Shown piece by piece: positions 10,378 to 44,767 of a stretch of DNA of 64,000 nt. The position numbers were made by a program, and so were the translations under genes. The DNA comes from Candidatus Doudnabacteria bacterium RIFCSPHIGHO2_12_FULL_48_16 (lineage in GTDB: Bacteria; Patescibacteriota; Doudnabacteria; UBA920; O2-02-FULL-48-8), in contig MFEY01000007.1 in assembly GCA_001780035.1 (NCBI GenBank), positions 198,343 through 262,342 of the forward strand. The letters are read 5' to 3'. The notes under the pieces were generated by a model, which saw only the letters and a program-made list of their open reading frames with translations, was not told where the DNA came from and ran no database searches. Positions within the stretch are counted from its first letter, which is position 1; every line of letters begins with the position of its first letter.

Positions 10378-10478
10378 GATGCTAATAACTTAGCATAAAA
10401 ATAGGATAATATTAATATATAATGACTTAAATATTAAGGCAAATATATCAACAATGACCGATCGGTCAAATATGATAT

Positions 10479-11024
10479 TTATTGCCAGTTTTCTATTTTA
10501 GCTTTCAAGATCGTGACGTTCTGGGCAATCCTCAATCGGTCGACTAAAATCTGAAATTCTTTAGGCAATAGGACGGGTCCAATCATCACGCTTTTTTGTA
10601 AATTAGTAAATCCGTTATTTAACAAAAATTTTCTCAAAAACCGCCGGTGGCGCCGCTTGTCTTCTGCAATATCAAAAACAATGACCGTGGCAAACCCATC
10701 AGTCCGCGGGGTCTTGTGTTTGGCCGCATGATTTATTAGCTGTTTCAACTCACCATCAATGGTCAATTGATAGTAAACCTTGTCGTCGGTTCGCTTTTTC
10801 GTGATCAATCCACTTTTTTGCAGACGATGTAATGCCGTTGTAATCGCCGGACCATTATACTGACCGCGCAATTTCTGCCGCAACCATTTATGATGATAGG
10901 CTCGACCCATCAGAGCGGCTGAGTAATACTCGTCAAATCCTTGAAAAAACTCCAATAATTTTCTCGGTAAGGACTCAATAGCTTTATTGACAGCTTTTTT
11001 AATTTTTTTACCTTTTTTAACCAT
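10479..11024 (-). CDS. Winged-helix regulator with C-terminal Cas2/PaaX_C-like domain
   Basis: N-terminal wHTH (LHRLQKSGLITKKRTDDKVYYQLTIDGE). C-terminus TVIVFDIAEDKRRHRRFLRKFLLNNGFTNLQKSVMIGPV resembles the Cas2 beta-alpha core (VIVYDI..DKRR..GxRVQxSV). Confidence 0.45.
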   Translation of the reverse strand: MVKKGKKIKKAVNKAIESLPRKLLEFFQGFDEYYSAALMGRAYHHKWLRQKLRGQYNGPAITTALHRLQKSGLITKKRTDDKVYYQLTIDGELKQLINHAAKHKTPRTDGFATVIVFDIAEDKRRHRRFLRKFLLNNGFTNLQKSVMIGPVLLPKEFQILVDRLRIAQNVTILKAKIENWQ

Positions 11025-11103
11025 AATTTTATTATATCATAAAGTGTCGATCGGTCTAAAGTGATATAAATTTAAATTAAACAAATCGGTTTAGATGGCT
11101 CGT

Positions 11104-21682: not shown

Positions 21683-21801
21683 ATCTTTTTTGTCTCAATT
21701 GCTAATGATTACTGCCTAATTTTAACAAAAATCTCGAGTTTTGTAAAGGTTGGCAAGGGTCAGACTCTATATTATATTAGTTAATCCCAAAAGGAGGATC
21801 G

Positions 21802-22416
21802 ATGGGACTAAGACACCTGGCAATCATCCCTGACGGCAACCGCCGCTGGGCCAAGCAACACCGCGTCAACGTGATGGCGGGTTACAAGGCTGGCGCGGAT
21901 CGGATGCTGGAAGTTGTGGGATGGTGCTTGAAGCATCGTATCCCCCACCTTTCTGGTTTCATCTTGTCGAAAGACAACACGCGCAAACGGCCGGACGAAG
22001 AAATCGTGGCCATTCGGGAAGCGACGTTGTATTTCTTGCGTGAGATCGACAGACTCAAGCTCAACATCCGCTTGTGTGGTGATGTACGCGACCAGCACCG
22101 GTTGTGGAACCAAGAGGCGTTCAGCAGTCTCGACTGTACGGATCGACGAAAAGCACCTCTGACGTTCTGGGGCATGGTCAATCATTCCCGAACCGATGAC
22201 CTGGGCTTCGACTTTCCATACCAACATTGGGCTGTTCCCGATGTCGATCTGCTGATTCGCACCGGCGACCGGCAACGCCTCGATGGTTTCATGCCCATGA
22301 AAATCGCCTACAGCGAGATTCTGTTTCTGTCGAAGATGTGGCCGAACTTCACCGTGCGGGACATGGACAAGGCGCTGGCCTGGTACCGGTCCCGCAAGCG
22401 CACACAAGGAGAGTAA
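21802..22416 (+). CDS. uppS: Isoprenyl transferase (undecaprenyl diphosphate synthase family)
   Basis: HLAIIPDGNRRWAK, DLLIRTGDRQRLDGF. AAAGGAGGATCG RBS. GC-richer than surroundings. Confidence 0.75.
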   Translation: MGLRHLAIIPDGNRRWAKQHRVNVMAGYKAGADRMLEVVGWCLKHRIPHLSGFILSKDNTRKRPDEEIVAIREATLYFLREIDRLKLNIRLCGDVRDQHRLWNQEAFSSLDCTDRRKAPLTFWGMVNHSRTDDLGFDFPYQHWAVPDVDLLIRTGDRQRLDGFMPMKIAYSEILFLSKMWPNFTVRDMDKALAWYRSRKRTQGE

Positions 22417-22440
22417 TTGGCTCCTTGTGTGCGGTGTTTT
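22395..22440 (+). terminator. uppS intrinsic terminator (GCACACAAGGAG..CTCCTTGTGTGC + T7)
   Basis: 12-bp perfect stem spanning the stop codon, followed by GGTGTTTTTTT. Confidence 0.65.
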
Positions 22441-22446
22441 TTTACT

Positions 22447-22484
22447 TGTAACAACTATAGAGCGATAGGCGCATAGTTGTTACA
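22447..22484. repeat. Palindromic element E1 (TGTAACAACTAT-agagcgataggcgc-ATAGTTGTTACA)
   Basis: 12-bp perfect inverted repeat with conserved loop TAGAGCGATAGG, 30 nt after the uppS stop. Confidence 0.55.
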
Positions 22485-22487
22485 TTG

Positions 22488-23060
22488 TTATTTCTGCTCA
22501 ATTTTTTTGTATACTTCGTTGCCATCGGAAATAATTTCGCCCGTTTGATAACCTGATAATTTAATTTGCGTTTGGCCAAAACTAATTTGGCGGGCTTGCA
22601 AATCCAACAATGTGCCTGAATCCAGCATAATCCGCTGATTGGTATTCAAATAAGCAATAACCATTTGTTTCTGATTGATTAAGTCCAACAATTCTTTCAT
22701 GGCGGAGGAATTCATTTCCCCTGCTGGCAGTAAAACTTGTTGAACCTCATAACGTTTCAAAACGTAAACCAAACCGGTGGCGTGGAAGTCATCGGCCTGG
22801 GTTAAAATCAATAAATCGATTTGGTGATCGTAAAACGGCAAAATCCGGCCCAGCTCCGATAAAATTTTGTCACCCGGCCCGCCATTGATCAAAATCTTGT
22901 TCCCCTGATAGGTTTGGACAAAAATTTCGCCGGATTCATAAGAATTCACATGCAATTTCCAATCCGGTCGGGTTTGATACAATCCAAAACTAATTGCAAT
23001 CAGCAGCAGCGCTAAAGGTAAAATTAAATATTTGATGAGGTTTTTGGTCGAAGTGTCCAT
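22488..23060 (-). CDS. ComEC C-terminal metallo-beta-lactamase-like domain protein (degenerate active site)
   Basis: ILINGGPGDKILSELGR...IDLLILTQADDFHATGL resembles the ComEC MBL domain, but the HxHxDH motif is replaced. Overlaps the comEC stop by 37 nt. Confidence 0.5.
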   Translation of the reverse strand: MDTSTKNLIKYLILPLALLLIAISFGLYQTRPDWKLHVNSYESGEIFVQTYQGNKILINGGPGDKILSELGRILPFYDHQIDLLILTQADDFHATGLVYVLKRYEVQQVLLPAGEMNSSAMKELLDLINQKQMVIAYLNTNQRIMLDSGTLLDLQARQISFGQTQIKLSGYQTGEIISDGNEVYKKIEQK

Positions 23061-24490
23061 AATTTATAATACCAAACAAAAATACCGGCGAGAATTAAAT
23101 AATAAACCAGCACGCTGTAGATATTAATATTCAACCCCAGAGACGCGTATGGGATTGAGGCAAACAAGCCAACTACCTTGAGAATATAAGTTAACAGCAG
23201 CCACGAGATGGCCATCAAGGGCCAGGCCAGCTTCAGCCCGACAAACCCAACAAAACCAGCGAGGAAACCAAACAGCATGGCCACCGGCACCGCGAGCATA
23301 ACCAGCAAATTGACCGGCACGGCCACGATTGACAGTGAGCCAAAATAATAAAGCAAAATCGGCAACGTGAAGATCTGCGCCGCGAGGGTGGCCAGCAGAT
23401 AGTTGCGCAGCAACTTCGGCATCCACAAAAAATATGGCTCAATCAAAGGCGAGAAATATATCAATCCTAACACGGCGGCAAATGAGAGCTGAAAGCCAAT
23501 GTCAAAGTGCAGGATTTGCGGATTAAATGCCAGCATAACTGCGGCGCTGAAAACCAAGGCGTTGGTTATGGCATAGAGACGGCCGATGTTCAGCGCGATC
23601 AAAAGCAGAACGCCCATAACGCCGGCGCGGATCACGGACGCGGAAGCGCCGGTCATAAATACGAACGCGATGATCGCAATAACCGAAAGGGCAAATGAAA
23701 TGCGCTTGCGCAGGCCCAGCCACTGCAGGAGCCAGCCGATGCCGGCGGCGATAATGCTGATATTGTATCCGGAGACGGCCACGATGTGCGAAGTGCCGGT
23801 GGCGCTGAATTGATCCAGCAGGGTTTGCGGGATCGCCCGCTTGGCGCCCAGGAGCAGTCCGCCCATAAACGATGCCTGCGGCTCCGGCAGCAAATGATTG
23901 AGATTCTCCACGAATCGTTGTTTGAATTTCAAAATATAATATTTGATCGGGTTGCCAGAATTCCCATCCGCGCTTTCCACTTTGGGATAATAAGCCACGG
24001 CATCGATGCCGAAACGCGATAAATAATTTTTGTAGTTGAAATCCGGAAATTCCTTCGGCTCCTCCAGTTTGGCCGAAAAAACCACCTTCTGCCCATATTG
24101 GTATTCGGGAAACAGCGGCACCGTGGCCAAAACTTTGCTGGTTAGTTCCCGGTCGCCGATTATGATCTGACCGAGAGTTAGATAAACCTTGTCCGTTCGG
24201 ACATCTGGCTCTTCCATAATCAGGGAGGTCGCCAAAACCTCTAGGCCGTAAAATGGCGCCAAATCGTTTTGATGATAAGTGGCTTGGAACCTAAGCGACC
24301 CCAACAGAGCCACAACGCCGGCCAACCCAATCACAACGGCTAGCTTATTTTTCCAGCCGATGGTAATGAGGCCAATAAAAAACATGGCTGCGAATGCCAT
24401 GATAAAGTGGTTGATAAATCGCCCTAAAAAAACTCCAAGAATAAACGCTAAGCAAAAAATTAGAAAAGCTTTTGATTTTGACAACGACAT
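23024..24490 (-). CDS. comEC: DNA internalisation competence protein ComEC/Rec2 (DUF4131 + competence channel domains)
   Basis: Polytopic. Competence-domain motif GLLLGAKRAIPQTLLDQFSATGTSHIVAVSGYNISIIA. Confidence 0.8.
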   Translation of the reverse strand: MSLSKSKAFLIFCLAFILGVFLGRFINHFIMAFAAMFFIGLITIGWKNKLAVVIGLAGVVALLGSLRFQATYHQNDLAPFYGLEVLATSLIMEEPDVRTDKVYLTLGQIIIGDRELTSKVLATVPLFPEYQYGQKVVFSAKLEEPKEFPDFNYKNYLSRFGIDAVAYYPKVESADGNSGNPIKYYILKFKQRFVENLNHLLPEPQASFMGGLLLGAKRAIPQTLLDQFSATGTSHIVAVSGYNISIIAAGIGWLLQWLGLRKRISFALSVIAIIAFVFMTGASASVIRAGVMGVLLLIALNIGRLYAITNALVFSAAVMLAFNPQILHFDIGFQLSFAAVLGLIYFSPLIEPYFLWMPKLLRNYLLATLAAQIFTLPILLYYFGSLSIVAVPVNLLVMLAVPVAMLFGFLAGFVGFVGLKLAWPLMAISWLLLTYILKVVGLFASIPYASLGLNINIYSVLVYYLILAGIFVWYYKLWTLRPKTSSNI

Positions 24491-24503
24491 GGTCTTAAAT
24501 AAT

Positions 24504-24564
24504 GCAATGCTGAACTTGGTTCAGCATCTATTTTTAGAGATCCTGAAATAAATTCAGGATTGCG
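24504..24564 (+). repeat. Two-hairpin structured repeat element, copy A
   Basis: gcaatGCTGAACttggtTCAGCatct...agatCCTGAaataaatTCAGGattgcg, between hisS and comEC. Confidence 0.6.
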
Positions 24565-24571
24565 AATTATT

Positions 24572-25813
24572 TTACCACAGCATGGACTTGACTTCGGCCA
24601 CCAGATTGGCCAGATCGACAGTCCGCTGTTCTTTCTCGCGCAAATTTTTCAAAGTCACTTTCCGCGCCGAAGCTTCATCGGGCCCGAAAATCACGGCGAC
24701 CTGCATATTTTTCGCCTGCGCGTATTTGAACTGCTTGTCGAGTTTCGAGGGTTCGTAGACGACCTCGGCATCAATCCCGGCATTTCGCAAATTGGTGGTC
24801 ATATTCAAATAATCGGCAGTTAAGTTTTCATCCAGATTAAACACAATTACCTCAGCCGCGGTCTGGGGGGCGACCACATCCATTTCTTGAATCGCCGCAA
24901 ACAGCCGGTCCAGGCCAATCGAGCCGCCGACCGCCGGCATTTTGACGCCCGTAGTTTTTTCCAGCAAGTCATCATACCGCCCGCCGCCGCAGACGCTGCC
25001 AAATTCCGGTTTGGCCACCAAGACAAATTCAAACACTATACCCGTGTAATAAACCAAACCTCTCATTAAATATTTATCAAATTCCATCTGCTCCACCCCG
25101 AGGCCGGATAACAGTTGGGTCATCTGGTTAACATAGCCCTTGCTCGATTTCTCCATCAGTTGGGAATATTTTTTGAGAATATTACGATCAAATCCTTGCT
25201 CAACCAAACTCTCAACAACTTTTTCTTCGCCAATTTTATCCAGTTTATCCAATGTCCGCATAAAATTCCCAATATCCTTTTTGACAATATTGAGCTTGGT
25301 TAATACCTGGTCCACCAGTTTGCGGTCATTGAATTTTACCTTCACCTCGCCAATTTCCAATGATTTAAAAGCTGCATCAAAAGTCGCAATCACTTCGGCG
25401 TCCGCAATTATTGAATCCGAGCCGATAATATCCACGTCGCATTGCATAAACTCGCGGTAGCGGCCCTTCTGGGGTTTGTCTGCGCGCCACACCGGCGCCA
25501 TCTGATAACGCTTAAACGGTTTGGGCAGTTCGGGATAACTGGCCACGAATCTCGCCATTGGGACGGTCAGATCATAGCGCATAGCGACTTTGCGGCCACC
25601 CTGGTCTTCGAATTTATACATCAACTGCTCACCCTCCTCCCCGTATTTGCCGCCCAGGAGTTCATAATATTCCAGCGCCGGCGTGTCCATGGGGGCAAAG
25701 CCAAACCGCTCGAAGACTTCGGAAATCTTCTGCATAATTTTTTTGCGCGCCAGCTGCTCCTGGGGCAGATAGTCGCGAAAACCTTTTAAAATTTGGGGGA
25801 TCTCTTTTGCCAT
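24572..25813 (-). CDS. hisS: Histidine--tRNA ligase
   Basis: Class II motifs: RYDLTVPMARF, GRYREFMQCDVDIIG, C-terminal anticodon-binding domain. Confidence 0.9.
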   Translation of the reverse strand: MAKEIPQILKGFRDYLPQEQLARKKIMQKISEVFERFGFAPMDTPALEYYELLGGKYGEEGEQLMYKFEDQGGRKVAMRYDLTVPMARFVASYPELPKPFKRYQMAPVWRADKPQKGRYREFMQCDVDIIGSDSIIADAEVIATFDAAFKSLEIGEVKVKFNDRKLVDQVLTKLNIVKKDIGNFMRTLDKLDKIGEEKVVESLVEQGFDRNILKKYSQLMEKSSKGYVNQMTQLLSGLGVEQMEFDKYLMRGLVYYTGIVFEFVLVAKPEFGSVCGGGRYDDLLEKTTGVKMPAVGGSIGLDRLFAAIQEMDVVAPQTAAEVIVFNLDENLTADYLNMTTNLRNAGIDAEVVYEPSKLDKQFKYAQAKNMQVAVIFGPDEASARKVTLKNLREKEQRTVDLANLVAEVKSMLW

Positions 25814-25907
25814 GGATTAATTTTAGCACAAAAGTAAACTAAAAAAAACGAGGCGCGATCTTGTCTGTGAAGAACAAGACCGCGCCCAGGAAATCGATTG
25901 TTGGTCC

Positions 25908-26948
25908 TTAAACCCGCCGCTTAAAGACCGGCGGGGCTTCGCTGACCAGGCACCGAATCCCCGCTTGCGCAAAAACGGGGTAATGGCAGATTGGCGCCTC
26001 GGTCGTGAAGACTTGGTTCGTCCCCACCAACTCCTCCAACACGCCCCTGGCGATATCGTCGCCGCCCGTCATCAGGATGCGACCATCAGCGAGCTGGATC
26101 AGGTTGAGCGCGTAAGGCACCTCCAGGCCCGGCAAGCGATGAACGGTGACACCGAGAGGCTCGCACACCGTCCGGATGACTTTTTCCGAATCGGCCGGAT
26201 TGACGAGAGCCCAAGATTTACGCTCCACATCAACCCAAGCCGCGGTCATCACGCAGGGATCCAAAATCAAGTGCTTGCCGCCGTCCCGACCCGTGACCAG
26301 GCAGGCATAACGATCCCAGTGATCGTTAAAAAACACTCGATCCGTCACCCCCTCCATGGTACAAAAGACGGCCACCGGCAGAGGGAGAATGCCGACCTGC
26401 AACCCGGCGGCATGAAGAGGAGCGAGATCGTCGGGATTGACCCAACGCGACTTCCCTTCATGTTCAATGATTCGTTCGCCGACCAGGATTGTATTCCCGG
26501 TCGCCAGGGTTCGTCCCCCTTCTCCGAATGGGGAAGCAATCAATTCGACGCTCGATCGGAGCAACCGCGTCCAGCCCGAATTGATGAGATTGACTTTACC
26601 CGCGCGCATGGCGAGATCACGCGGATAGATCGTGCCGCCCGGAAAAAAATCCGGGCCGACGCCAGCCAGACGGCAACCCAGCGACAAAGCCATCCCGAGT
26701 GTCGTTTTGTCCACGTCTTCCGGGTGACCGTATACAATCCGGAATTCCGGGCCCATTTCCCGCAGAGCGGCCAGGATGGAAATATACTCAAATCGCAGCG
26801 CCTCCTGTAGCGTCTCAACCCTGTCCACTCGCCGTCTCAGATCGACGGCAAACTGAGCGGAGGTTGGCGGCGACGGGAATCGCTCGTCGGAGCTTTCCAA
26901 CTGCCGAGGAAAAACCGGCTCTCCCACCAGCAGAAACTCAAACCCCAT
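25908..26948 (-). CDS. Pentein-fold (amidinotransferase/DDAH/arginine deiminase superfamily) enzyme
   Basis: C-terminal catalytic-Cys motif AQAGIRCLVSE (compare GGGxRCMT). About 347 aa. GGAGG RBS. GC about 60 percent. Confidence 0.45.
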   Translation of the reverse strand: MGFEFLLVGEPVFPRQLESSDERFPSPPTSAQFAVDLRRRVDRVETLQEALRFEYISILAALREMGPEFRIVYGHPEDVDKTTLGMALSLGCRLAGVGPDFFPGGTIYPRDLAMRAGKVNLINSGWTRLLRSSVELIASPFGEGGRTLATGNTILVGERIIEHEGKSRWVNPDDLAPLHAAGLQVGILPLPVAVFCTMEGVTDRVFFNDHWDRYACLVTGRDGGKHLILDPCVMTAAWVDVERKSWALVNPADSEKVIRTVCEPLGVTVHRLPGLEVPYALNLIQLADGRILMTGGDDIARGVLEELVGTNQVFTTEAPICHYPVFAQAGIRCLVSEAPPVFKRRV

Positions 26949-27032
26949 GATCATCCTCCGTTTCGTAACTGAACGAAATATTATAACCGAATATTCCAAA
27001 ACAAACAAGACCCCATACGGGGTCTCTGGGCG

Positions 27033-27257
27033 TTAAGAAATTTCGATGAGTTTGTGGGTGCTTTTGTATCCGGAAACGATTCGAATGTTGGACGGCGCGG
27101 TATTGAAATATTCCGCCAAAATTTCGAGCGTCGCCTCGTTGGCTTGATTATCGGCCGGGGGCACCGTGACCCAAATTTTGTATTCATCCAGTCCTGTTTC
27201 TTCGATCTTTTCCTGGCTGGACTTGGCCTGGACTTTGACTTTGATGATTTGCGGCAC
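27033..27257 (-). CDS. DUF167 (YggU-like) protein
   Basis: 74 aa: KIWVTVPPADNQANEATLEILAEYFN...IRIVSGYKSTHKLIEI, matching the UPF0235 pattern. Confidence 0.6.
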   Translation of the reverse strand: MPQIIKVKVQAKSSQEKIEETGLDEYKIWVTVPPADNQANEATLEILAEYFNTAPSNIRIVSGYKSTHKLIEIS

Positions 27258-27262
27258 GGGGG

Positions 27263-27400
27263 TTAGCGCTCCAGGGGCGCAGCGGCGCTGCGATATTGGG
27301 CCGCCAGCTTGGGGGATTGTTTAAAAGCGTAAATAATTCCGATAATGGCAATGATCACGACAATGATGAAAATCTCAAGCTTTCTTAGGGAAATATTCAT
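27263..27400 (-). CDS. Possible 45-aa single-TM membrane peptide
   Basis: MNISLRKLEIFIIVVIIAIIGIIYAFKQSPKLAAQYRSAAAPLER, between DUF167 and the adenosyltransferase gene. No clear SD. Confidence 0.25.
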   Translation of the reverse strand: MNISLRKLEIFIIVVIIAIIGIIYAFKQSPKLAAQYRSAAAPLER

Positions 27401-27446
27401 AATTAAAGAGGGTTAAATCACGCCCTCAATATTAGCACTTAAAAAA

Positions 27447-27974
27447 TTAGTAATCAATACCCCGCTGGGCCAGGATACCCTGGTAATACGGATGCTTGAT
27501 CATGCGCATCTCCGTGACCAAGTCGGCCAGATCGATCAGCTTTTTGATCCGCTTGTGGCCGGTCAGGCACAAATGGGTCTGAACCGGCTTGGATTTGATA
27601 ATTTTAACCACATCGTCGACCGTCAACAAATCCGATTCAATGGCCGAGATCGCTTCATCCAGAATTACCAAATCGTATTTTTTGCTTTTGAGAGCCTTGA
27701 TCGATTCGGCCATGGCATTCTTCGCCGCCTTGATGTGCTCCGCGATCGGTTTGCGGTCGCCCAAAATCCCGACAAAGCCGCGGCCCATGAGTTTGACGTC
27801 CACGCCTTTGAGTTTGGACAAAACTTCCCGCTCGCCACTCGGCCAGTCGCCTTTGACAAACTGCAAATACAGAACCTTCAGGCTGGTGCCGGCCGCGCGA
27901 ATGGCCAAGCCCGCCGCAGCCGAGGTTTTTCCCTTGCCGTTGCCGATATAAATAATGGTTAAACCTTGGGCCAT
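27447..27974 (-). CDS. cobO: Cob(I)yrinic acid a,c-diamide / corrinoid adenosyltransferase (CobA/CobO/BtuR family)
   Basis: GNGKGKTSAAAGLAIRAAG...YLQFVKG..SGE. 175 aa. Confidence 0.8.
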   Translation of the reverse strand: MAQGLTIIYIGNGKGKTSAAAGLAIRAAGTSLKVLYLQFVKGDWPSGEREVLSKLKGVDVKLMGRGFVGILGDRKPIAEHIKAAKNAMAESIKALKSKKYDLVILDEAISAIESDLLTVDDVVKIIKSKPVQTHLCLTGHKRIKKLIDLADLVTEMRMIKHPYYQGILAQRGIDY

Positions 27975-28058
27975 GGGGTATTGTTTAATCCCTGATTAAC
28001 CTCTATACTATATCAAATCAAAATCGATTTCACCGCACCATAACCGGAGGAGGCTCCG

Positions 28059-28316
28059 ATGACAACCGAAGACCGTCCGCAATGGATCAAGGACTTGCAG
28101 GACTACGGGATTCACCCGCCGGCAGACAGGGACAAGGCACGGGAACTTTATGAGTTCCTGATGCACGGCACCAACCCGCCCAAAGTCACTCAGCGCGCCA
28201 AGCTGATCCGGCAACAACAGAAGCAAAGCGAAGGACTGAGGCAGGCTCGGCTGGAGGAAAGCCGGCAGACAATGGCTGCGCTCGTGGCCCGCCGCCACCA
28301 TCTTCCTCGCTCGTAG
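28059..28316 (+). CDS. Hypothetical 85-aa protein
   Basis: GGAGGAGG RBS. Strong terminator GGACGTCCC..GGGACGTCC + T6 at about 28357-28385. GC-rich. Confidence 0.4.
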   Translation: MTTEDRPQWIKDLQDYGIHPPADRDKARELYEFLMHGTNPPKVTQRAKLIRQQQKQSEGLRQARLEESRQTMAALVARRHHLPRS

Positions 28317-28388
28317 AATCGCCGCGCCTTCCCGATCGTCTTTGACAACAACAGGACGTCCCACAACCAGGGACGTCCGTTTTTTATT

Positions 28389-28646
28389 TTAATATTGCTC
28401 TGTGGGTTCCGGCTCGACCGAAACCCCCAGCTTCTCTTTCAGTTTGGCGATAAGCCGATCCAGAGCCGCAATATCTTGCGGGGTCATGCCCGGCTGCGTC
28501 TTGGCTTCTTCCAATCCCTTGATTCGATATTTAAGATCATCACCGAAGCCGTTTTTGGGTGCGCCATCTTCCCTTTTGTAGCCCCTGGGGGCCGATTTTT
28601 GATTATTTAAATCCATGTTTTTTCTTTCTCTTCTCTTCTCTCCCAA
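28389..28646 (-). CDS. Hypothetical small charged protein
   Basis: MDLNNQKSAPRGYKREDGAPKNGFGDDLKYRIKGLEEAK... Start may be the internal MDLNNQ (28616). Confidence 0.4.
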   Translation of the reverse strand: MGEKRRERKNMDLNNQKSAPRGYKREDGAPKNGFGDDLKYRIKGLEEAKTQPGMTPQDIAALDRLIAKLKEKLGVSVEPEPTEQY

Positions 28647-28766
28647 AAGAAATGCTAATAGCGAGGGCTGTAATTTTTAAGGACAACGTCGAAGGCTTTC
28701 CAATGCCTGAGACTTTAGCCCCGCCTTAGCGGGGCGTGTCCGCAAAAATTACAGCCCGAGCGACAT

Positions 28767-31421
28767 TTAGCATTTCGACCACCCACAACTTTCGCATTTT
28801 TGACACCCTTCGGTCATGCGCAGCATGTCGCCGCACATCATGCAGACCGGCGCATTGCCGTTGTCCGCAATCGAAACTTTTTGGCTGGTGAACGGGCTGC
28901 CGGCGGTATGAATCTCCTGCATCACGGCCTGGAACACCGGTTGCTGAATGACGACTTTCGGCGCTTCCACTTTCGGGATTTCGAGCTTAAGTTCAATTTG
29001 CCCGCGCTTAGTGTGGTTTTCCAGGACATTGGCAATGGCATCAGGCAGCGACAGAATTCGCTCCCCGTTGTGGAAGACCGGGTCCGGCCCGCGGATGCCC
29101 TTGAGCTGCTCAACGACGGTGGGCAGCGAAATACCCGAACGCAAGGCCAAAGAAATCATCCGGCAAATCGCTTCGGTCTGGGCACCGAAGAATCCGCCGG
29201 CCTTGCCGAGCTGCGAAAAAACTTCAAACGGGCCATATTCGTCTTCGTTAACCGTGACATACAAGTTGCCATAGGCCGTCGGGACTTTGTAGGTGGAACC
29301 CTGCATAACATCCGGCCGCTTGCGGGGAGAGATCTTGGTTGCACCGGTGGCTGGAATGGAAACTGGATTGACAATTGGTTCGGGTGCTGACAAAACAGGT
29401 GCTTCGAGTTTGGCGGCCGCCTGAATGGCTTCGTTCCTCTGCTGAGTCTCCACTTGGTCGGATGCGTCTTTGCCCAGTTTTTTATGATCCGTCGCCAGAA
29501 TCTGCTCGTCCCGGCTGCCATCGCGGTAAATCGTCCCGCCTTTGCAGCCCAGGTCATAAAGCATTTCGTAAAGCTTCGCGGTCTGTTCAACCGTGTAATT
29601 TTCCGGCGCATTCACGGTTTTGGAAATCGCGCTGTCCGTCCAGCGCTGGACCGCGGCCTGCACCCGCACATGCTCTTCCGGAGTCAATTCCATGGCGGTG
29701 ACAAAGTAATCGGGCAGCGATTCCCCGGGATGAGCATCCAGCCAGTCTTTGGCCAGCTTGATATGCTCCTGATGCACCCCCAGGCGGGATTTGCGGAAAT
29801 ATGTCCAGGAGAAGAACGGTTCAACGCCGGTGGAAGTGCCGACCATGGTGCCGATCGTGCCGGTGGGGGCCTGGGTCAGAATGGTGACGTTGCGAATGCC
29901 GTATTGCCGCACCAGGTGCCGGATATACTCCGGCATTTTTTTCATAAAACCCGATTGCAGGAATTGTTCCGCATCAAACTGGCCAAACGTTCCCTTTTCG
30001 CGGGCCAGGTCAATGGAAGTTTCATAGGCAGTAATGGCGATAAACTGGTAAAGCTTATCGATAAACTCCACGCCCTGGGGCGAGCCGTAGCGCAGGCCGA
30101 GGTTAATCAACATTTCCGCCAAGCCGATGGTGCCCATGCCGACGCGCCGTTCGCTCATCTGCTGCTTGTAATTTTGATCAAAGAAATAGGGTGTGGCGTC
30201 AATGACGTTGTCTTGGAACCGCACCGCATCCTGCACGGTCCGCTTGAGTTTGTTCCAATCGACATCTTTTTTGGCGGTATCCACGTGCTTGGCCAAGTTC
30301 ACATGGCCAAGATTGCACACTCCCCAAGCCGGCAGCGGCTGTTCGCCGCAAGGATTGGTGCAGGGCAGATCGGCATAGTAGCCGGAATTGGAATAGTAGT
30401 TGGCCCGGTCGATAAAATACATGCCCGGTTCCGCCGAGCCCCAAGCGGAAGAAATGATATTTTCCCAGATGTCCTTAGCCCGGACGGTCTTGTGCTTGAT
30501 GACCCGGCCGCCAATTTCTTTCCAGCGGGTGATGTTGCCGTCCCAGCGATCCTTAAACATCGGATCCGAGGTGTCGGGAAAAATCAAATCCCACGGCTGG
30601 TCGTTTTTGACAGCCAGCATAAAATCATCGGTGATGCCCACCGAAATATTGGCGTTGGTGATCCGGCCGGCTTCTTTTTTGGAATTGATAAAGTCAATCA
30701 CATCCGGATGCCAGACATTCAAAATCAGCATCAGGGCCCCGCGGCGCGAACCGCCCTGCTCGATCAAGCCGGTCACAAAACTGTAAAGCGATGCCCAGGA
30801 AACCGCGCCGGATGAGCGGCCGTTGACGCCTTTGACGTAAGCATAACGCGGACGCAGGGTCGAAACGTTGATGCCGACGCCGCCCCCCCGGCTCATAATT
30901 TCGGCCATCTGGCCCAGGGTGTCAAAAATCCCCTGGCGCGAATCCTTCGGCGACGGAATGACATAGCAATTGTAATAAGTTAAATTCTGGCCCGTGCCCG
31001 CGCCGGTAAAAATCCGACCGGCCGGCACGTATTTCCAATCATCCATAAGCTCGCGGAACCGGCCTTCCCATTCGGTCTGCGCTTCGGGCGTGGCTTCGAC
31101 GCTGGCGATGTGCTTGGCGATACGCTCAAACATCTGTTCCGGCACCGTCTCGAGAGGCTTATCGACATGCTCAATCGCCCGGGTTTCCAAACTGCCGTCG
31201 CGCAATTTCACGATAACTTCATGGTTGGCTTGGTCAACTTTTTCCACCGTGCCGATTTCCCGCTGGCCGGTTTTGAGGTTAACGCAAACCACCACGGTAT
31301 CTCCCACGGTCATAGTCTCCTTTTTGGCATCCTTAATCGCATAACGATCAAGGAAAATCTTTTCGCCCAGTTCGGCGAGGGCGTTAACTTTTCTGGTTTG
31401 GAGATTTTCTTTCGGCTGCAT
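28767..31421 (-). CDS. nrdJ: Ribonucleotide reductase class II (adenosylcobalamin-dependent), NrdJ
   Basis: Start at MQPKENLQTRKV (track ORF over-extended to 31646). Catalytic CGEQPLPAWGVCNLGHVNL. C-terminal zinc ribbon CMMCGDMLRMTEGCQKCESCGWSKC. Confidence 0.85.
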   Translation of the reverse strand: MQPKENLQTRKVNALAELGEKIFLDRYAIKDAKKETMTVGDTVVVCVNLKTGQREIGTVEKVDQANHEVIVKLRDGSLETRAIEHVDKPLETVPEQMFERIAKHIASVEATPEAQTEWEGRFRELMDDWKYVPAGRIFTGAGTGQNLTYYNCYVIPSPKDSRQGIFDTLGQMAEIMSRGGGVGINVSTLRPRYAYVKGVNGRSSGAVSWASLYSFVTGLIEQGGSRRGALMLILNVWHPDVIDFINSKKEAGRITNANISVGITDDFMLAVKNDQPWDLIFPDTSDPMFKDRWDGNITRWKEIGGRVIKHKTVRAKDIWENIISSAWGSAEPGMYFIDRANYYSNSGYYADLPCTNPCGEQPLPAWGVCNLGHVNLAKHVDTAKKDVDWNKLKRTVQDAVRFQDNVIDATPYFFDQNYKQQMSERRVGMGTIGLAEMLINLGLRYGSPQGVEFIDKLYQFIAITAYETSIDLAREKGTFGQFDAEQFLQSGFMKKMPEYIRHLVRQYGIRNVTILTQAPTGTIGTMVGTSTGVEPFFSWTYFRKSRLGVHQEHIKLAKDWLDAHPGESLPDYFVTAMELTPEEHVRVQAAVQRWTDSAISKTVNAPENYTVEQTAKLYEMLYDLGCKGGTIYRDGSRDEQILATDHKKLGKDASDQVETQQRNEAIQAAAKLEAPVLSAPEPIVNPVSIPATGATKISPRKRPDVMQGSTYKVPTAYGNLYVTVNEDEYGPFEVFSQLGKAGGFFGAQTEAICRMISLALRSGISLPTVVEQLKGIRGPDPVFHNGERILSLPDAIANVLENHTKRGQIELKLEIPKVEAPKVVIQQPVFQAVMQEIHTAGSPFTSQKVSIADNGNAPVCMMCGDMLRMTEGCQKCESCGWSKC

Positions 31422-31452
31422 GATTTTGTGGGACGGGTGGTTAATTATTTTG

Positions 31453-31899
31453 TTATTCCAATTTCTTGGCTTCCTTAATGAACTCTTCAACGTCAGCGAA
31501 CTGGCGATAGACGGAAGCGAAGCGGATATAAGCGACCTGATCCTTGCCCTTGATCCGGCGCATGACGATGTTGCCGATGTCTTTGGCCGGGATCTGCTCC
31601 TTGCCGGACTTCTGGATATCCTGCTCGATGCCGGAGACCAAGGCATGGAAATCGTCTCGCGTCAGAGGACGTTTCTCAAAGGCCTTGCGGATGCCGGATT
31701 CAATCTTTTCCCTCATGTAAGCTTCGGTTCGGCCGTCGCGCTTCACCACGGTCAGATCCAAAATTTCCATTTCCTCGTGGGTGGAGAATCGGGCGCCGCA
31801 TTTGGTGCATTCCCGGCGGCGCCGGATGGCCAAACCATCTGAAATCGGACGGGAGTCCAAAACTTTGGTGTCGTCATTTTGACAGTTGGGGCAGCGCAT
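31453..31899 (-). CDS. nrdR: Transcriptional repressor NrdR
   Basis: MRCPNCQNDDTKVLDSRP...CTKCGARFST zinc ribbon plus ATP-cone. Confidence 0.9.
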   Translation of the reverse strand: MRCPNCQNDDTKVLDSRPISDGLAIRRRRECTKCGARFSTHEEMEILDLTVVKRDGRTEAYMREKIESGIRKAFEKRPLTRDDFHALVSGIEQDIQKSGKEQIPAKDIGNIVMRRIKGKDQVAYIRFASVYRQFADVEEFIKEAKKLE

Positions 31900-32038
31900 G
31901 AAATTGTCTCCGGTTTTTTGGCGTAAAAAAAATAAGAGGGATTTTGCTTAAAATAAGCCTCTCGGTGATTTTTAGAATGTGCCCGTGTTGGTGTTTGTCT
32001 GGATATTTGTGTCCAAAGGGTAAGCCTTAGGGCTTCGA

Positions 32039-32088
32039 ACACAAGATATAGTGTTTACCATAGATAATATAACCCTATATATAGAATG
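32039..32088. promoter_or_regulatory. Two NrdR boxes upstream of nrdR-nrdJ
   Basis: ACACAAGATATAGTGT and ACCCTATATATAGAAT match the acaCwAtATaTwGtgt consensus. Centres about 33 bp apart. Confidence 0.6.
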
Positions 32089-32259
32089 CTGTCAAAAGCC
32101 AATTTCGGGCTATTTTCTACGGGCGGAACTACCGGTAGAGAAACTTATCAACAAAAGAGTGCCATGAGGGTTTCCCTGTGTCAATTTCAAATTTTCCCTC
32201 TCCCTTTGCGGGAGAGGGTGGCGCGAAGCGCCGGGTGAGGGGTATAATTAATTATATTT

Positions 32260-33447
32260 ATGACCTCTAATCTGGAAAAATCCAAATCAAGCTGTCTTTA
32301 CTGCGGCAACAACCCTATCCCACACACGGTTCATAAGTTTTATGAATCCCTCGACATCGCATTTGGGCCGATTCGGCGCGGCTTGTCTCAAAGTCCCCTC
32401 GGCGCCGCCGGGGACAAGCTTGGTAACTTGGTCGGCATCGGGCTTTATCGAATCCTCAAGGCTATGGGCCTGATCACCATCAATACCAGCATCGACGAAA
32501 TCAAATATGACCGGGCGCGGGTGATTTGGGCGGAAGCCATGCGGCGGCAAATCCCGATCGAGGAGATCAAACCATTTAACCGCTCGATTGATTTATACAA
32601 AAGCCGGATCAATAACCGGGATTTTTGGTTTATGAACCTGCCGCGGCGCGAACACGTCGCCACTAGCAACTTAACCTGGGTCGATGATAAATGGCTGCTC
32701 AAGAAAAAACTGCGCGAACATAGCCTGCCCACGGCCAAGGGCGGGGCGTTTTTCAGGTATGCGGCGGCCAAGCAAATGTTCCATCAACTGAATAAGCCGG
32801 TCATCGTCAAGCCGCGCGCCGGATCGCGTGGCCGGCACACCACGACCTTTATTTACACCGAAGATGATTTTTGGCAGGCGTTTAAAATCGCCAAACAACT
32901 CTGCCACTGGGTAATTGTCGAAGAACACCTCTTCGGCGATGTCCAGCGCGGCACCATCATCGGCGGCAAGCTGATTGGGGTCTTAGGCGGCAGCTCGCCC
33001 AAGGTCACCGGGGATGACCAAAACTCAATTTTAGAACTGATCCGACAAACCGACGCCGGCCGGCCGATGGGCGTAAAAGAAATCCAAGTCAATCCGTATT
33101 TCATGCAGCGGCAAGGGCTAACCATGGAAACCGTGTTGCCGGCCGGAAAAACCGTTTATCTGTCAGAAAAAATTGGAGTCAACTACGGTGGCACGAGTTT
33201 TGACGCTACCCCCTACACTCATCCAGAAACCAAAGCTATGCTGGAAAAAGCCGGCCAGGTGCTCAACGTTTCGATCTTGGGGTTTGATTTCATCGTGCCG
33301 GATATTAGAAAATCCTACAAAGAACAAAAAGCCGGCATTATCGAATGCAACGGCGCGCCGTTTATCAATTTACATCACGATCCCCTGATCGGAGAATCCA
33401 TCAACGCCGCCAAAGCCGTGTGGGATTTAGTTTTAGAAAATAAATAG
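32260..33447 (+). CDS. ATP-grasp protein resembling the N-terminal + ATP-grasp domains of cyanophycin synthetase (no Mur-ligase domain)
   Basis: KPVIVKPRAGSRGRHTTTF (compare CphA PVVVKPLDGNHGRGV). IIECNGAPFINLHHDPLIG (compare CphA IEVNAAPGFRMH). -10 TATAAT 16 nt upstream of the ATG. Confidence 0.5.
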   Translation: MTSNLEKSKSSCLYCGNNPIPHTVHKFYESLDIAFGPIRRGLSQSPLGAAGDKLGNLVGIGLYRILKAMGLITINTSIDEIKYDRARVIWAEAMRRQIPIEEIKPFNRSIDLYKSRINNRDFWFMNLPRREHVATSNLTWVDDKWLLKKKLREHSLPTAKGGAFFRYAAAKQMFHQLNKPVIVKPRAGSRGRHTTTFIYTEDDFWQAFKIAKQLCHWVIVEEHLFGDVQRGTIIGGKLIGVLGGSSPKVTGDDQNSILELIRQTDAGRPMGVKEIQVNPYFMQRQGLTMETVLPAGKTVYLSEKIGVNYGGTSFDATPYTHPETKAMLEKAGQVLNVSILGFDFIVPDIRKSYKEQKAGIIECNGAPFINLHHDPLIGESINAAKAVWDLVLENK

Positions 33448-33459
33448 AAAAAAACCGGT

Positions 33460-33496
33460 GTAACAACCATAGAGCGATAGGTTGGTGGTTGTTACA
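33460..33496. repeat. Palindromic element E2 (TGTAACAACCA-tagagcgataggttgg-TGGTTGTTACA)
   Basis: Same arms and loop as E1, 13 nt after the ATP-grasp gene stop. Confidence 0.55.
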
Positions 33497-33597
33497 TAAC
33501 GAATAGCATATAAAAAGAGGGACGGAGGCTGTCTTGGGTCGATGTCGAGTCGACTCCCAGCCTCCGTTTTTTTCGTCCTCCTCACCCTTCCTCCTGC

Positions 33598-34329
33598 TTA
33601 CGTCTGCTCCGGTTCCGGATGGGCCAGCATGGCCGCCTCGAGCCGATCCCATTCGTCCTTGGGCTTCCAGGCCACGTTGCCTTTCTCAATCTCCGCGGCG
33701 ACTTCCGGATCCTCCTGCTGGTATTGCGGCAGCGGGTCGTGGATCAGACTGACTACCGGCACGCCGAACCACACCCGATGGAGCGACCGGTTAAAGAACC
33801 CGGCAATAGCCACCGCCATGGCGCTCTTGCTCCCTACAAGGGCGACCCCTTCGCCCGTGGTCCGGAAGTTGTTCAGGACGTCGTCAGCCACGATCACCCG
33901 GTCATCCGGATCGAGATCGTGCCGTCCCAGAATGAGTATCGACTTCTCCCGGCTGGTCGACGTCGCCAGCGCGACGACCTTCCTATCGGCGTAGATCACA
34001 CGACAGGCCAATGCGCGGGCGATACTGTCGGCGACAAGAATCCCGCCCATGGGCATGCCCATGACGACGGTCGGATTGAACGGGCGCAACCGGTCGATCA
34101 TTTTGACCGCCCATTCATCGTAAACGAACCGATACTGCTCGATGGGAGCGAAGTTAAGGTAGACATCGCCCACATACTGCAAACCGGTGACCGGATCACA
34201 TTCGGTGTAGCCGACAACCGGTCCCAGCCATTCGCGATTCGGGCCCCGCGGGCATTTGTAGTAGCCTTTGAGCCCCCGCATCAAGGCCCGCGGATCCTTC
34301 TGGATCGCATCGATTCGTGTCAGTTTCAC
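33598..34329 (-). CDS. pyrE: Type I phosphoribosyltransferase (putative orotate PRTase)
   Basis: PRPP-binding loop RVIVADDVLNNFRTTGEGV. GTG start with GAAGGAGGAGG RBS. Adjacent to pyrF. Confidence 0.5.
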   Translation of the reverse strand: MKLTRIDAIQKDPRALMRGLKGYYKCPRGPNREWLGPVVGYTECDPVTGLQYVGDVYLNFAPIEQYRFVYDEWAVKMIDRLRPFNPTVVMGMPMGGILVADSIARALACRVIYADRKVVALATSTSREKSILILGRHDLDPDDRVIVADDVLNNFRTTGEGVALVGSKSAMAVAIAGFFNRSLHRVWFGVPVVSLIHDPLPQYQQEDPEVAAEIEKGNVAWKPKDEWDRLEAAMLAHPEPEQT

Positions 34330-38568: not shown

Positions 38569-39849
38569 TTACCGGCCTAATCTTTTTTTGACTTCATCGA
38601 TGATCCGGTCGATCACAAACAGCTCCTGCATACCTGACCGCACGTCGCGCAAAATCACGGTGCCTTCCCGGGCTTCCTTGTGGCCGATAATCAGAGCGAT
38701 ACTGGCTTTGCTCGATTCCGCCAGCTTAAGCTGCATTTTGATCGAACTGGGACCGGAAAATTCGGAAGCGATGATATCATGATTCCACAGTTCGGTAAAA
38801 AGTTTCAACGATTTTTTCGCAGCCAGCTCCCCCAACGGCACCAGAAACACTTCGGCCCGATGTTTGGCGGCAAATTTAATCTGGGCCAATTCCAAGGCTT
38901 TAAGGATGACTTCCTGAGTGGAATCAAATCCCAAGGCCGGACAGGCCGCTCCGCCCAACGATTGGATCAGCTCGTCGGAATGACCCCCGGTCCCGAGCAC
39001 GAAATCCTGATCGGCGATCCGGCAACGCAGTTCAAACACGGTCCGACGATTCCAAGGCCGGCCGATGACATGCGGATTGAGGTTATAGCTGATAGCCAGC
39101 TCATCCAGACCTTCCAGCACCGAAATCAGCTGGGCTCGGCAAGTCTCGCATAAATAGTCGACGATCACGGGCGCGTCGGTTGTTGTTGTGGAGCAGGCTA
39201 AATTTTTGCAGGCAAAAATCTGCAGCGGGTTGCCGGCCTCGAGGTAGATCAAACAATTTTCACATAAATCGTATTTCTTGTCTTTAAAATAAATTTTGAG
39301 CTGGTCCTGATAATTGGGCTGGCATTCCACGCAGCCGACATTGTTGACTTCCAGAGAAAAATTGCTTAAACCGACTTCGGTAAACAACCGCAGTAGTAAA
39401 TTGAGGAGTTGGGCATCGCTGACCGGCGCCACGGGTCCGAAAATCTGAAAGCCAAATTCCCGATTTTGCTTTAACTCATTTTTTTCATCCCAGCAGGCGA
39501 CCAGCATATCATAATACCATTTCACCACCTTTATCGGTTCCTGTTCCTGCAGGGGCAGATATAGCCGGGCAAGGCCAAAAATGCCGGCCGGAGCGGCAGC
39601 AATGCTGGGGCCTTTGGTTTGCAGAAAATTCAGCAACTGGCAGCCGACTTTGGACCAAAAGCCGAACAGCCGCGAGTCCTCGAACATCGGCGTCTGCACC
39701 TGACTAAAACCAAAAGTGCGCGAAAGCGCCACCACTTTCTCCCAAAATCCTTCCCAAGACATAAACTGGTCCTGACCCAGGTCAAAACTGCCGGGCAATC
39801 GATGAGGGGCTTTTTCAACATTTGGAGTTGGTTTTTTGGGGCGGCCCAT
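38569..39849 (-). CDS. Divergent histidyl-tRNA synthetase paralog with zinc-ribbon insertion
   Basis: HisRS-like N-terminus (ALSRTFGFSQVQTPMFEDSRLF), relic motif 2 (NREFGFQIFG), Cys cluster CVEC..C..C...C..C, and HisRS-type anticodon-binding domain (ALIIGHKEAREGTVILRDVRSG). Confidence 0.55.
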   Translation of the reverse strand: MGRPKKPTPNVEKAPHRLPGSFDLGQDQFMSWEGFWEKVVALSRTFGFSQVQTPMFEDSRLFGFWSKVGCQLLNFLQTKGPSIAAAPAGIFGLARLYLPLQEQEPIKVVKWYYDMLVACWDEKNELKQNREFGFQIFGPVAPVSDAQLLNLLLRLFTEVGLSNFSLEVNNVGCVECQPNYQDQLKIYFKDKKYDLCENCLIYLEAGNPLQIFACKNLACSTTTTDAPVIVDYLCETCRAQLISVLEGLDELAISYNLNPHVIGRPWNRRTVFELRCRIADQDFVLGTGGHSDELIQSLGGAACPALGFDSTQEVILKALELAQIKFAAKHRAEVFLVPLGELAAKKSLKLFTELWNHDIIASEFSGPSSIKMQLKLAESSKASIALIIGHKEAREGTVILRDVRSGMQELFVIDRIIDEVKKRLGR

Positions 39850-44294: not shown

Positions 44295-44767
44295 TCGCTT
44301 TAACGCCTCACCCTATGTGAGGCGTTAAATTTAGCCAAAAGGAAGAGCCGCCGGTGACAATTGGAGAAGTTGTCACCTGCGGCCCGGAAAAACTGGTGCG
44401 GTGAGGCGGAGATTACGAATCGAGTTTGCCGACCCGGCGCACGTCGATGCCCAGGTCGATCGAACCCGAATGGCTGAGTGGCGGGAGCGGAGCCGGAGCC
44501 GGCTGCAAGCGCGGCGGGTTTGACGCCTGCCAGACCGTGGGGTCCGGCTTGCGTTCGAGACTCTGCTGGCCGCCCTTGCGCCCGGATTGCGGCTGAGACT
44601 TGCTCAGCACCTTTCGCGCGATTACCCGGTCAAAACCCGCAAGCTGTCCCACCCTAAAAAAATATCTTGCCACGATGGCCTCCAAACGATACCTACCTGG
44701 TTGATGTTAACGGCCGGGGAAACAGCCGTTTTGGGAAAGTCCGATTGGCCGAACCGGACTGGCGGGA

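Follow-up and report, generated by a model that had tools for sequence, protein, structure and literature searches.

The window analysed here is a 64,000-nt stretch of Candidatus Doudnabacteria bacterium RIFCSPHIGHO2_12_FULL_48_16 (assembly GCA_001780035.1, contig MFEY01000007.1, positions 198,343 to 262,342) and it contains two copies of a 38-bp palindromic element, designated E1 (22447 to 22484) and E2 (33459 to 33496). With a probability that we place a little above one half, these correspond to solitary copies of the DNA-binding site of a PaaX-like regulator, the gene of which is bracketed by the same palindrome. The element family, the bracketing architecture, the synteny, the co-occurrence of sites and regulator in one genome and the fold of the protein are all directly observed. 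Judging from the sequences compared, the gene truly accompanied by the element is that of the PaaX-like regulator; the copy concerned lies outside the window and was for this reason missed by the original prediction, which was made from the window alone.

As read in the window, both copies were found on the plus strand, where E1 is TGTAACAACTATAGAGCGATAGGCGCATAGTTGTTACA and E2 is TGTAACAACCATAGAGCGATAGGTTGGTGGTTGTTACA; in the orientation of the family they occupy the minus strand, with TGTAACAACTATGCGCCTATCGCTCTATAGTTGTTACA for E1, whose 12-bp arms are perfect, and TGTAACAACCACCAACCTATCGCTCTATGGTTGTTACA for E2, in which the ATG of the family is retained. As originally noted, the central 12 nt (TAGAGCGATAGG) are identical and the arms differ slightly: the outer 9-nt arms are also the same and a single stem position differs, in a compensatory manner (T-A to C-G). 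The original prediction was likewise right in treating E1 and E2 as one element, since both belong to a single family. Its boundaries for E1 stand, but E2 begins at 33459, one base before the 33460 that had been given, and the distance of 13 to 30 nt past a stop codon applies to E1, which starts 30 nt after the uppS stop, but not to E2, which starts 11 nt after that of an ATP-grasp gene. Relaxed searches of the window returned exactly two copies, when shuffled sequences gave ca. 0, and a covariance model of the family (R1) run unfiltered detected E1 with 48.5 bits (E 4.7e-9) and E2 with 52.1 bits but no third copy in the 64 kb, the next match reaching 15.8 bits. Hairpins of 11 to 12 bp are predicted from E1 and E2 on either strand (z = -4.4 and -5.2). 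E1 is identical in every strain contig read and E2 in 5 strain contigs; no presence/absence polymorphism was detected among ca. 24 contigs at each of the two sites, and no target-site duplication flanks E1, E2 or a solitary copy found in a relative (locus L043, see below). The 15.8-bit match (E 0.4) is a perfect 13-bp hairpin (TTTAACGCCTCAC-CCTAT-GTGAGGCGTTAAA) located at 44300 to 44328, 5 nt (44295 to 44299) past the stop of a peptidyl-tRNA hydrolase gene; it has the TTTAAC...GTTAAA ends and CCTAT centre of the family in a shorter form, and may be either a distant relative or a mere terminator-like hairpin.

A fuzzy search identified two further copies, E3 (4300 to 4337) and E4 (3708 to 3745), that flank a gene encoding a 187-aa protein, P0001, in the locus designated L020. 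This protein matches the Pfam family PaaX_M (9e-19) and, weakly, TIGR02277 PaaX and Cas2, while a profile search of the PDB retrieved Cas2 (3exc), ArsR regulators and PaaX (8a39), with ArsR/MarR-type winged helix-turn-helix (wHTH) matches. Its AlphaFold model (pLDDT 83) has E. coli PaaX (8a39) as best Foldseek match (E 5e-5), followed by many Cas2 structures. These profile and structure matches show P0001 to consist of a wHTH and a Cas2-like middle domain as in PaaX, the C-terminal effector domain (PaaX_C) being absent. The Cas2 signature FDIPE...R...QRSLF, its Asp included, is invariant. The family is large, with 5,563 cluster representatives at E <= 1e-3 (ca. 5,500 clusters at 50% identity), mostly 180 to 200 aa long. 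No match was found in PHROGs, and PADLOC gave weak Cas2 matches only. P0001 is encoded on MFFD01000005.1 and MFEP01000019.1, and the same two assemblies (GCA_001780075.1 and GCA_001777635.1) carry uppS and E1 of the window on MFFD01000001.1 and MFEP01000011.1. The exact uppS and ATP-grasp proteins of the window are found in these assemblies and in Rifle-aquifer contigs, and one related protein bears the label Candidatus Doudnabacteria. The search for the element covered ca. 90 kb of the host genome, in which E1 to E4 are the four copies; all four share the half-sites GTAACAAC and GTTGTTAC, so that the site can be written GTAACAAC-N20-GTTGTTAC. E1 and E2 are hence extra copies of the site that brackets the regulator gene in the same organism and, as the half-sites of E3 and E4 are the same, should be bound by P0001.

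Homologs P0001 to P0023 were placed in their contigs and seven loci were examined (L020/L048, L034, L037, L040, L042, L043 and L045). In every one of these loci, a PaaX-like gene of ca. 186 aa occurs between two copies of the element, and the copies in the relatives' loci score 36 to 48 bits with the covariance model. Upstream copies of all seven loci overlap a promoter; the downstream copies, E1 and E2 occur at gene 3' ends. The upstream copies start 3 to 6 nt after an extended -10 (TGnTAnAAT) and carry the start codon in their 3' side (...CCTATCGCTCT ATG GTTGT...) with no Shine-Dalgarno sequence. This ATG is the real start, given that the residues that follow it are conserved as protein and that two orthologs have no alternative internal methionine. 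The downstream copies begin 0 to 30 nt after the stop codon and are in direct orientation relative to the upstream ones in five loci (L037, L040, L042, L043 and L045) and inverted in the other two (L020 and L034). The gene is syntenic in four species (L037, L040, L042 and L043) and lies in a non-syntenic context in L020, L034 and L045; the latter (P0023) defines a third subfamily that has yet another arm sequence with the same architecture. At least three genomes have solitary copies, most of which lie at a gene 3' end or where two genes converge.

An alignment of 17 copies (A1) indicates a nearly invariant centre, CCTAT-N3-4-CTAT(G), and arms that vary among species yet match within a locus, with 11 of the 12 pairs changing on both sides. 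Paired cells amount to 84.7%, versus 64.6% in shuffles and 26-47% when partner columns are slid. There are 8 G-U pairs versus 11 A-C pairs, with no strand bias in either orientation, and neither strand therefore displays an RNA signature. Downstream and solitary copies are the nearest to a perfect palindrome; the symmetry is poorer in upstream copies, the sequence of which doubles as the first codons of the gene. E1 has no ATG; its closest counterpart is the downstream copy of L042, with which it has 19 nt in common (AACAACTATGCGCCTATCG).

The covariance model recovered all known copies and a new solitary one in L043 (2382 to 2417, TGACAACCATCCACCTATCGCATAATGGTTGTTCA), which overlaps the end of a small membrane-protein open reading frame (ORF) upstream of pyrD. 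Its arms are like those of L034 and differ from the arms of the L043 bracket, suggesting that this genome has a second paralog. A third copy was also seen in L037 (1511 to 1548), ca. 55 nt (1457 to 1510) downstream of the downstream copy and with different arms (TTGTACCA...TGGTACAA). Genes matching the 23S rRNA intervening-sequence-protein family (PF05635) lie near PaaX-like loci in L048 (13466 to 20510) and L040 (6080 to 6469); the L048 copy also matches bAvd (PF22296), and one L048 gene of this family precedes that of a giant (>4,600 aa) beta-helix protein.

In the case of E2, the element is located between an ATP-grasp (cyanophycin-synthetase-like) gene (32260 to 33447, plus strand) and a phosphoribosyltransferase-like (PRTase-like) gene found downstream of pyrF (33598 to 34329, minus strand). 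The former belongs to the syntenic core, with tblastn identities of 79.5% in L042 and 53% in L043 at the same position. The order in relatives (L040, L042 and L043) is pyrF, PRTase-like gene, (pyrD), PaaX-like gene, (purB-purC), ATP-grasp gene, NrdR and NrdJ, the PaaX-like gene thus following either the PRTase-like gene or pyrD; in the window it is pyrF, PRTase-like gene, terminator, E2, ATP-grasp gene, NrdR and NrdJ. E2 aligns with the upstream copies of the relatives' PaaX-like genes, and its flank matches the succession of terminator, promoter and upstream copy seen there. On the minus strand, the positions adjoining E2 (33497 to 33512) read TATATGCTATTCGTTA where relatives have the extended -10 TGCTATAAT (alignment A3), the -10 of the E2 flank being TGCTATTCG, and represent a decayed promoter. 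A separate bidirectional intrinsic terminator hairpin (GGACGGAGGCTG...CAGCCTCCGT; 33512 to 33573), recognised by direct reading and having T-runs on both strands, follows between E2 and the PRTase-like gene, and in relatives a terminator is also found upstream of the promoter and the upstream copy. Conserved synteny and the decayed promoter identify E2 as a scar, the former upstream copy of a PaaX-like gene that once lay between the PRTase-like and ATP-grasp genes and has been lost or has moved. Precisely such a structure is expected after a deletion between the two 38-bp direct repeats. In a neighbour-joining tree, which is poorly resolved, P0001 groups with P0002, and this pair with P0020 and P0003, the syntenic gene of the closest relative; given its position near P0003, P0001 may be the gene that moved away from the E2 site.

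In the case of E1, the element is found 3 nt from the stop of a convergent 190-aa gene and past the own hairpin-and-T7 terminator of uppS. The uppS-like gene (21802 to 22416, plus strand) encodes a 204-aa cis-prenyltransferase, and its intrinsic terminator, CACACAAGGAG...CTCCTTGTGTG then T7, was recognised by direct reading between the uppS stop and E1 (22401 to 22443, plus strand). Together with the uppS promoter, these form a 755-bp block (21733 to 22487) that is missing in relatives: in L052 and L054, the stop of the ComEC C-terminal gene abuts the conserved promoter of the peptidyl-prolyl isomerase (PPIase) gene (TTTTTGTTAAAATTAG), and neither uppS nor the element is present. The product is an orphan, shorter than typical UppS and below all NCBIfam cut-offs, and among 5.8 billion proteins its best match after itself is 41% identical, distant matches including DPANN archaea. 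The absence of the 755 bp from relatives and of any homolog above 41% identity point to uppS as a lineage-specific acquisition, and E1 is one edge of the inserted block. The convergent gene (22488 to 23060, minus strand) encodes a truncated C-terminal (metallo-beta-lactamase) domain of ComEC, which is split at this locus (22488 to 24490) into a 488-aa membrane part and the overlapping 190-aa ORF; distant homologs of the latter (38-44% identical) are ca. 285 aa long and carry PF00753, and its closest relatives (64-70% identical) share the short form of 185 to 186 aa. No homology was found between this 190-aa gene and a PLD-like gene of L020, and no relative of the PLD/DinB locus was found among the loci retrieved.

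The two loci also bear on the original view that both genes preceding the element are GC-rich and likely acquired. This holds for uppS, which has 56.1% GC versus a window mean of 51.2% and looks lineage-specific, but not for the ATP-grasp gene, which has 51.4% GC and an ortholog in conserved synteny. The related suggestion that the element travels with imported genes found no support either: no copy occurs in the locus of the nearest uppS homolog, which therefore provides no evidence of gene and element moving together, nor beside the ATP-grasp ortholog of L042. In the comparison of gene presence and absence with sister genomes that had been recommended, both copies coincide with differences in gene content, namely the uppS block and the gene site at E2.

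A second, unrelated palindrome family with a similar arrangement is found in the window itself. A paralogous gene with wHTH and Cas2-like domains (10479 to 11024, minus strand, 181 aa; tblastn 4e-6 to the L020 protein, TIGR02277 PaaX 3e-10, Cas2 8e-6), the product of which is only 23-28% identical, is bracketed by a 34-bp palindrome (ATATCA-N6-GNCGATCGGTC-N5-TGATAT). The downstream copy lies at 10445 to 10478 and the upstream copy at 11034 to 11067, 9 nt (11025 to 11033) before the ATG. The overall geometry, ATATCA-N22-TGATAT, is the same as that of the E1/E2 family. A third copy, identical at 34 of 34 positions, is solitary and lies in L048 on the contig encoding P0001 (4351 to 4384), between a NUDIX gene and a 389-aa gene. 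That each paralog has its own palindrome on both flanks, with a further solitary copy elsewhere for the two paralogs of this genome, argues that the encoded protein specifically recognises its palindrome.

The binding of the protein, its repression and whatever function E1 and E2 may have today are predictions. The protein would bind as a dimer that reads both outer half-sites, GTAACAAC-N20-GTTGTTAC. As the upstream copy begins 3 to 6 nt past the extended -10, it would span both the transcription start and the start codon, where autorepressors classically bind, and would serve as an autorepression operator; the downstream copy would be an auxiliary operator or a roadblock. Of the window copies, E2 would be an operator left behind as a relic and E1 would be a lone site at the junction of the uppS insertion, both matching the half-sites of the surviving regulator. 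In E. coli, PaaX recognises TGATTC(N27)GAATCA and is a repressor of its own promoter (PMC9493321). It resembles the proteins described here in its wHTH and Cas2-like middle domain (8a39, PaaX_M), in having inverted half-sites separated by a long spacer (39 bp in total, versus 36-38 bp here with a shorter spacer) and, as regards the upstream copies, in a site that overlaps the regulator's own promoter, the corresponding autorepression being predicted here. It differs in that the present proteins, of ca. 186 aa, have no C-terminal effector (phenylacetyl-CoA) domain and are not accompanied by paa genes, that a second copy follows the stop codon, that the spacer contains a conserved asymmetric motif, that solitary copies occur at 3' ends and that the half-sites are unrelated. 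Action at the DNA rather than the RNA level is the best-supported option, given the occurrence of downstream copies in either orientation, the lack of a G-U bias, the constant 34-38 bp geometry of unrelated palindromes and the architecture shared with E. coli PaaX. Duplicated operators placed around or within the gene that they regulate, with several hundred bp between them, are found in the LacI (O1/O2) and GalR (OE/OI) systems. Here, unlike in these systems, the second site lies just past the regulator's own stop, ca. 590 bp away, and looping would be a prediction.

Several observations weigh against such an operator role. E1 and E2 are located between convergent 3' ends and not in promoters, which is odd for the operators of a regulon, and the downstream copy of every bracket is just as oddly placed. 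Among species, the arms diverge but the asymmetric centre CCTATCGCTCTATG does not, which a simple operator made of two half-sites would not predict; a hairpin loop that is recognised as such, or an additional contact, would fit better. The near-perfect palindromy of solitary and downstream copies also fits a hairpin or cruciform function. The role of operator is itself a prediction.

These points leave some room for an RNA-level hairpin, discussed below, and for a mobile or recombinogenic cassette, made of the PaaX/Cas2-like gene and its two palindromes and comparable to a REPtron (repetitive extragenic palindromes, REP, with a REP-associated tyrosine transposase, RAYT), in which the protein would nick or recombine at the palindromes and solitary copies would be footprints or dispersed copies marking hot spots of gene gain and loss. 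Cognate repeats that flank the gene in all loci and in three divergent subfamilies, the solitary copies of at least three genomes, in the main at gene 3' ends or where genes converge, the non-syntenic contexts of L020, L034 and L045 and the invariant Asp of the Cas2 signature are all in line with it, as are the gene-content differences that coincide with both window copies and the grouping of P0001 with P0003, which fits a relocation leaving E2 behind. As in REPtrons, the palindromes are extragenic, imperfect, ca. 35-40 nt long and species-specific in sequence, are often located at 3' ends or between convergent genes and flank a cognate gene; unlike in REPtrons, there is no Y1/HUH transposase and no GTAG head, copies are few in the sequence searched and those flanking the gene are direct in most loci instead of inverted. 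We nevertheless regard this explanation as unlikely, with about one chance in five, because the absence of target-site duplications and of strain polymorphism, together with a density of 2 copies per 64 kb, is not what it would lead one to expect, and because a gene that is syntenic in four species does not behave as an active mobile element. Moreover, the Cas2-like domain of PaaX has been described as a dimerisation motif (PMC9493321), no transposase or recombinase fold was found, and E2 can be accounted for by simple homologous deletion across the 38-bp direct repeats, with no enzyme to be invoked. The C-terminal domain does resemble Cas2/VapD endonucleases in its ferredoxin-like fold and signature, N-terminal Asp included, but is fused to a wHTH, with no cas1, array of clustered regularly interspaced short palindromic repeats (CRISPR) or VapX nearby, and has no known activity. 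A more elaborate version, for which the odds seem clearly poorer, would be a so far unrecognised selfish or recombinogenic cassette of bacteria of the Candidate Phyla Radiation (CPR), in which the wHTH targets the palindromes and the Cas2-like domain, its catalytic signature being intact, nicks or cuts them, so that the gene is excised and relocated (E2 being the footprint and P0001 the moved gene) and foreign genes such as uppS are captured (E1).

A hairpin acting at the RNA level, which would sequester the start codon at the 5' end of the PaaX-like mRNA and would act as a 3' stabiliser or terminator of the 190-aa and ATP-grasp genes, possibly bound by the Cas2-like domain (which resembles an RNA recognition motif), also appears improbable, if not quite as much as the elaborate cassette just mentioned. 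Predicted hairpins are stable (z of -3.3 to -5.6 over both strands), stems covary, the conserved centre is loop-like, the AUG lies in the 3' side of upstream copies that have no Shine-Dalgarno sequence, E1 and E2 come 3 and 11 nt after stop codons and the minus-strand stem of E2 is followed by CCGG and T8. Yet G-U pairs are not favoured over A-C pairs in either orientation, downstream copies occur in both orientations so that the RNA loop sequence would differ, most copies have no U-run after the stem, canonical terminators of uppS and of the PRTase-like gene adjoin the elements, and no Rfam family matches even at E <= 10. The leading idea of the original prediction, a cassette boundary of the integron attC type or of another tyrosine recombinase, starts from an imperfect palindrome at a gene 3' end and, for E1, from its position at the end of a lineage-specific inserted block, but fails on core motifs, length, array and integrase and is given next to no credence here. 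TAACAAC and TTGTAAC violate RYYYAAC, just as GTTGTTA and GTTACAT violate GTTRRRY; the element measures 38 nt versus 57-141 nt for attC sites; the two copies form no array but lie 11 kb from each other, separated by core genes (HisRS, NrdJ, NrdR and ComEC); the supposed ATP-grasp cassette is part of the syntenic core; and the element lies on both sides of its gene, as attC sites do not. A scan of 30 window ORFs with NCBIfam or Pfam, which covered about half of the long ones, revealed neither an integrase nor a transposase.

Other candidates were rejected. An intrinsic terminator is not supported, as E1 has no T-run on either strand and that of E2 is confined to the minus strand and separated from the stem by CCGG, the stems are poor in GC (39-42%), a terminator scanner lists neither copy and separate canonical terminators adjoin both. 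The earlier proposal of a shared regulatory or terminator module thus survives in its first half, which is close to the PaaX-operator reading favoured here, and not in its second, since no GC-rich stem directly followed by a U-run is present. The end of an insertion sequence or of a miniature inverted-repeat transposable element was dismissed for want of a target-site duplication, and a REP/RAYT system because the flanked gene is PaaX/Cas2-like and not Y1. The element head is TGTAAC, with no GTAG, and four copies occur in the ca. 90 kb searched, whereas REP elements have a conserved GTAG/GTGG head and tens to hundreds of copies per genome. A promoter within the element itself, for which E1 has GTAACA-N18-TATAGT, was rejected for the family, in which it would place the start ATG before the transcription start. 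A DNA uptake sequence, parS, dif, an NrdR box and an isolated CRISPR repeat were provisionally set aside on copy number, sequence or spacing.

Database searches for the element itself were mostly negative. At gathering thresholds, Rfam returned tRNAs only, and at E <= 10 it returned chance matches far below family gathering scores, among them a U6atac match that spans E1 at chance level (11 bits, E 1.4). A scan of a genome collection with TAACAACNNTAGAGCGATAGG gave a single chance match in an archaeal metagenome-assembled genome, and the species of the window is therefore not among the representative genomes. The metagenome scan returned 21 loci, 19 of which are chance matches in coding sequence and only two, L020 and L022, are real; three scans of viral contigs gave chance matches only, including one in a giant-virus coding sequence.

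We know of no description of a gene bracketed in this way together with solitary copies, and no paper on PaaX and Cas2 together came up in a literature search. In the small genomes of CPR bacteria few regulators are recognisable, and hardly any pair of regulator and site is known. The flanks of the gene directly indicate the likely DNA target of every family member examined, which would make regulons predictable from sequence. The bracket and its solitary copies also provide a concrete marker of gene loss and gain among close CPR relatives. Should the Cas2-like domain prove active at these sites, they would represent a new type of recombination element related to Cas2 ancestry.

The neighbourhood of E1 and E2 is made up of core genes, namely those for GroEL/ES, Fpg, Adk, PPIase, ComEC, histidyl-tRNA synthetase (HisRS), CobA, NrdJ, NrdR, pyrF, FtsZ and FtsA. 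Two HisRS-like genes occur within the 64 kb (24572 to 25813 and 38569 to 39849), as they do in the relative L040, and one of them may be a HisZ-like paralog. Finally, a 1372-aa ORF at 1022 to 5140 has no Pfam match, and a 708-aa protein encoded at 8251 to 10377 displays four lamin-tail domains and a signal peptide-like N-terminus.

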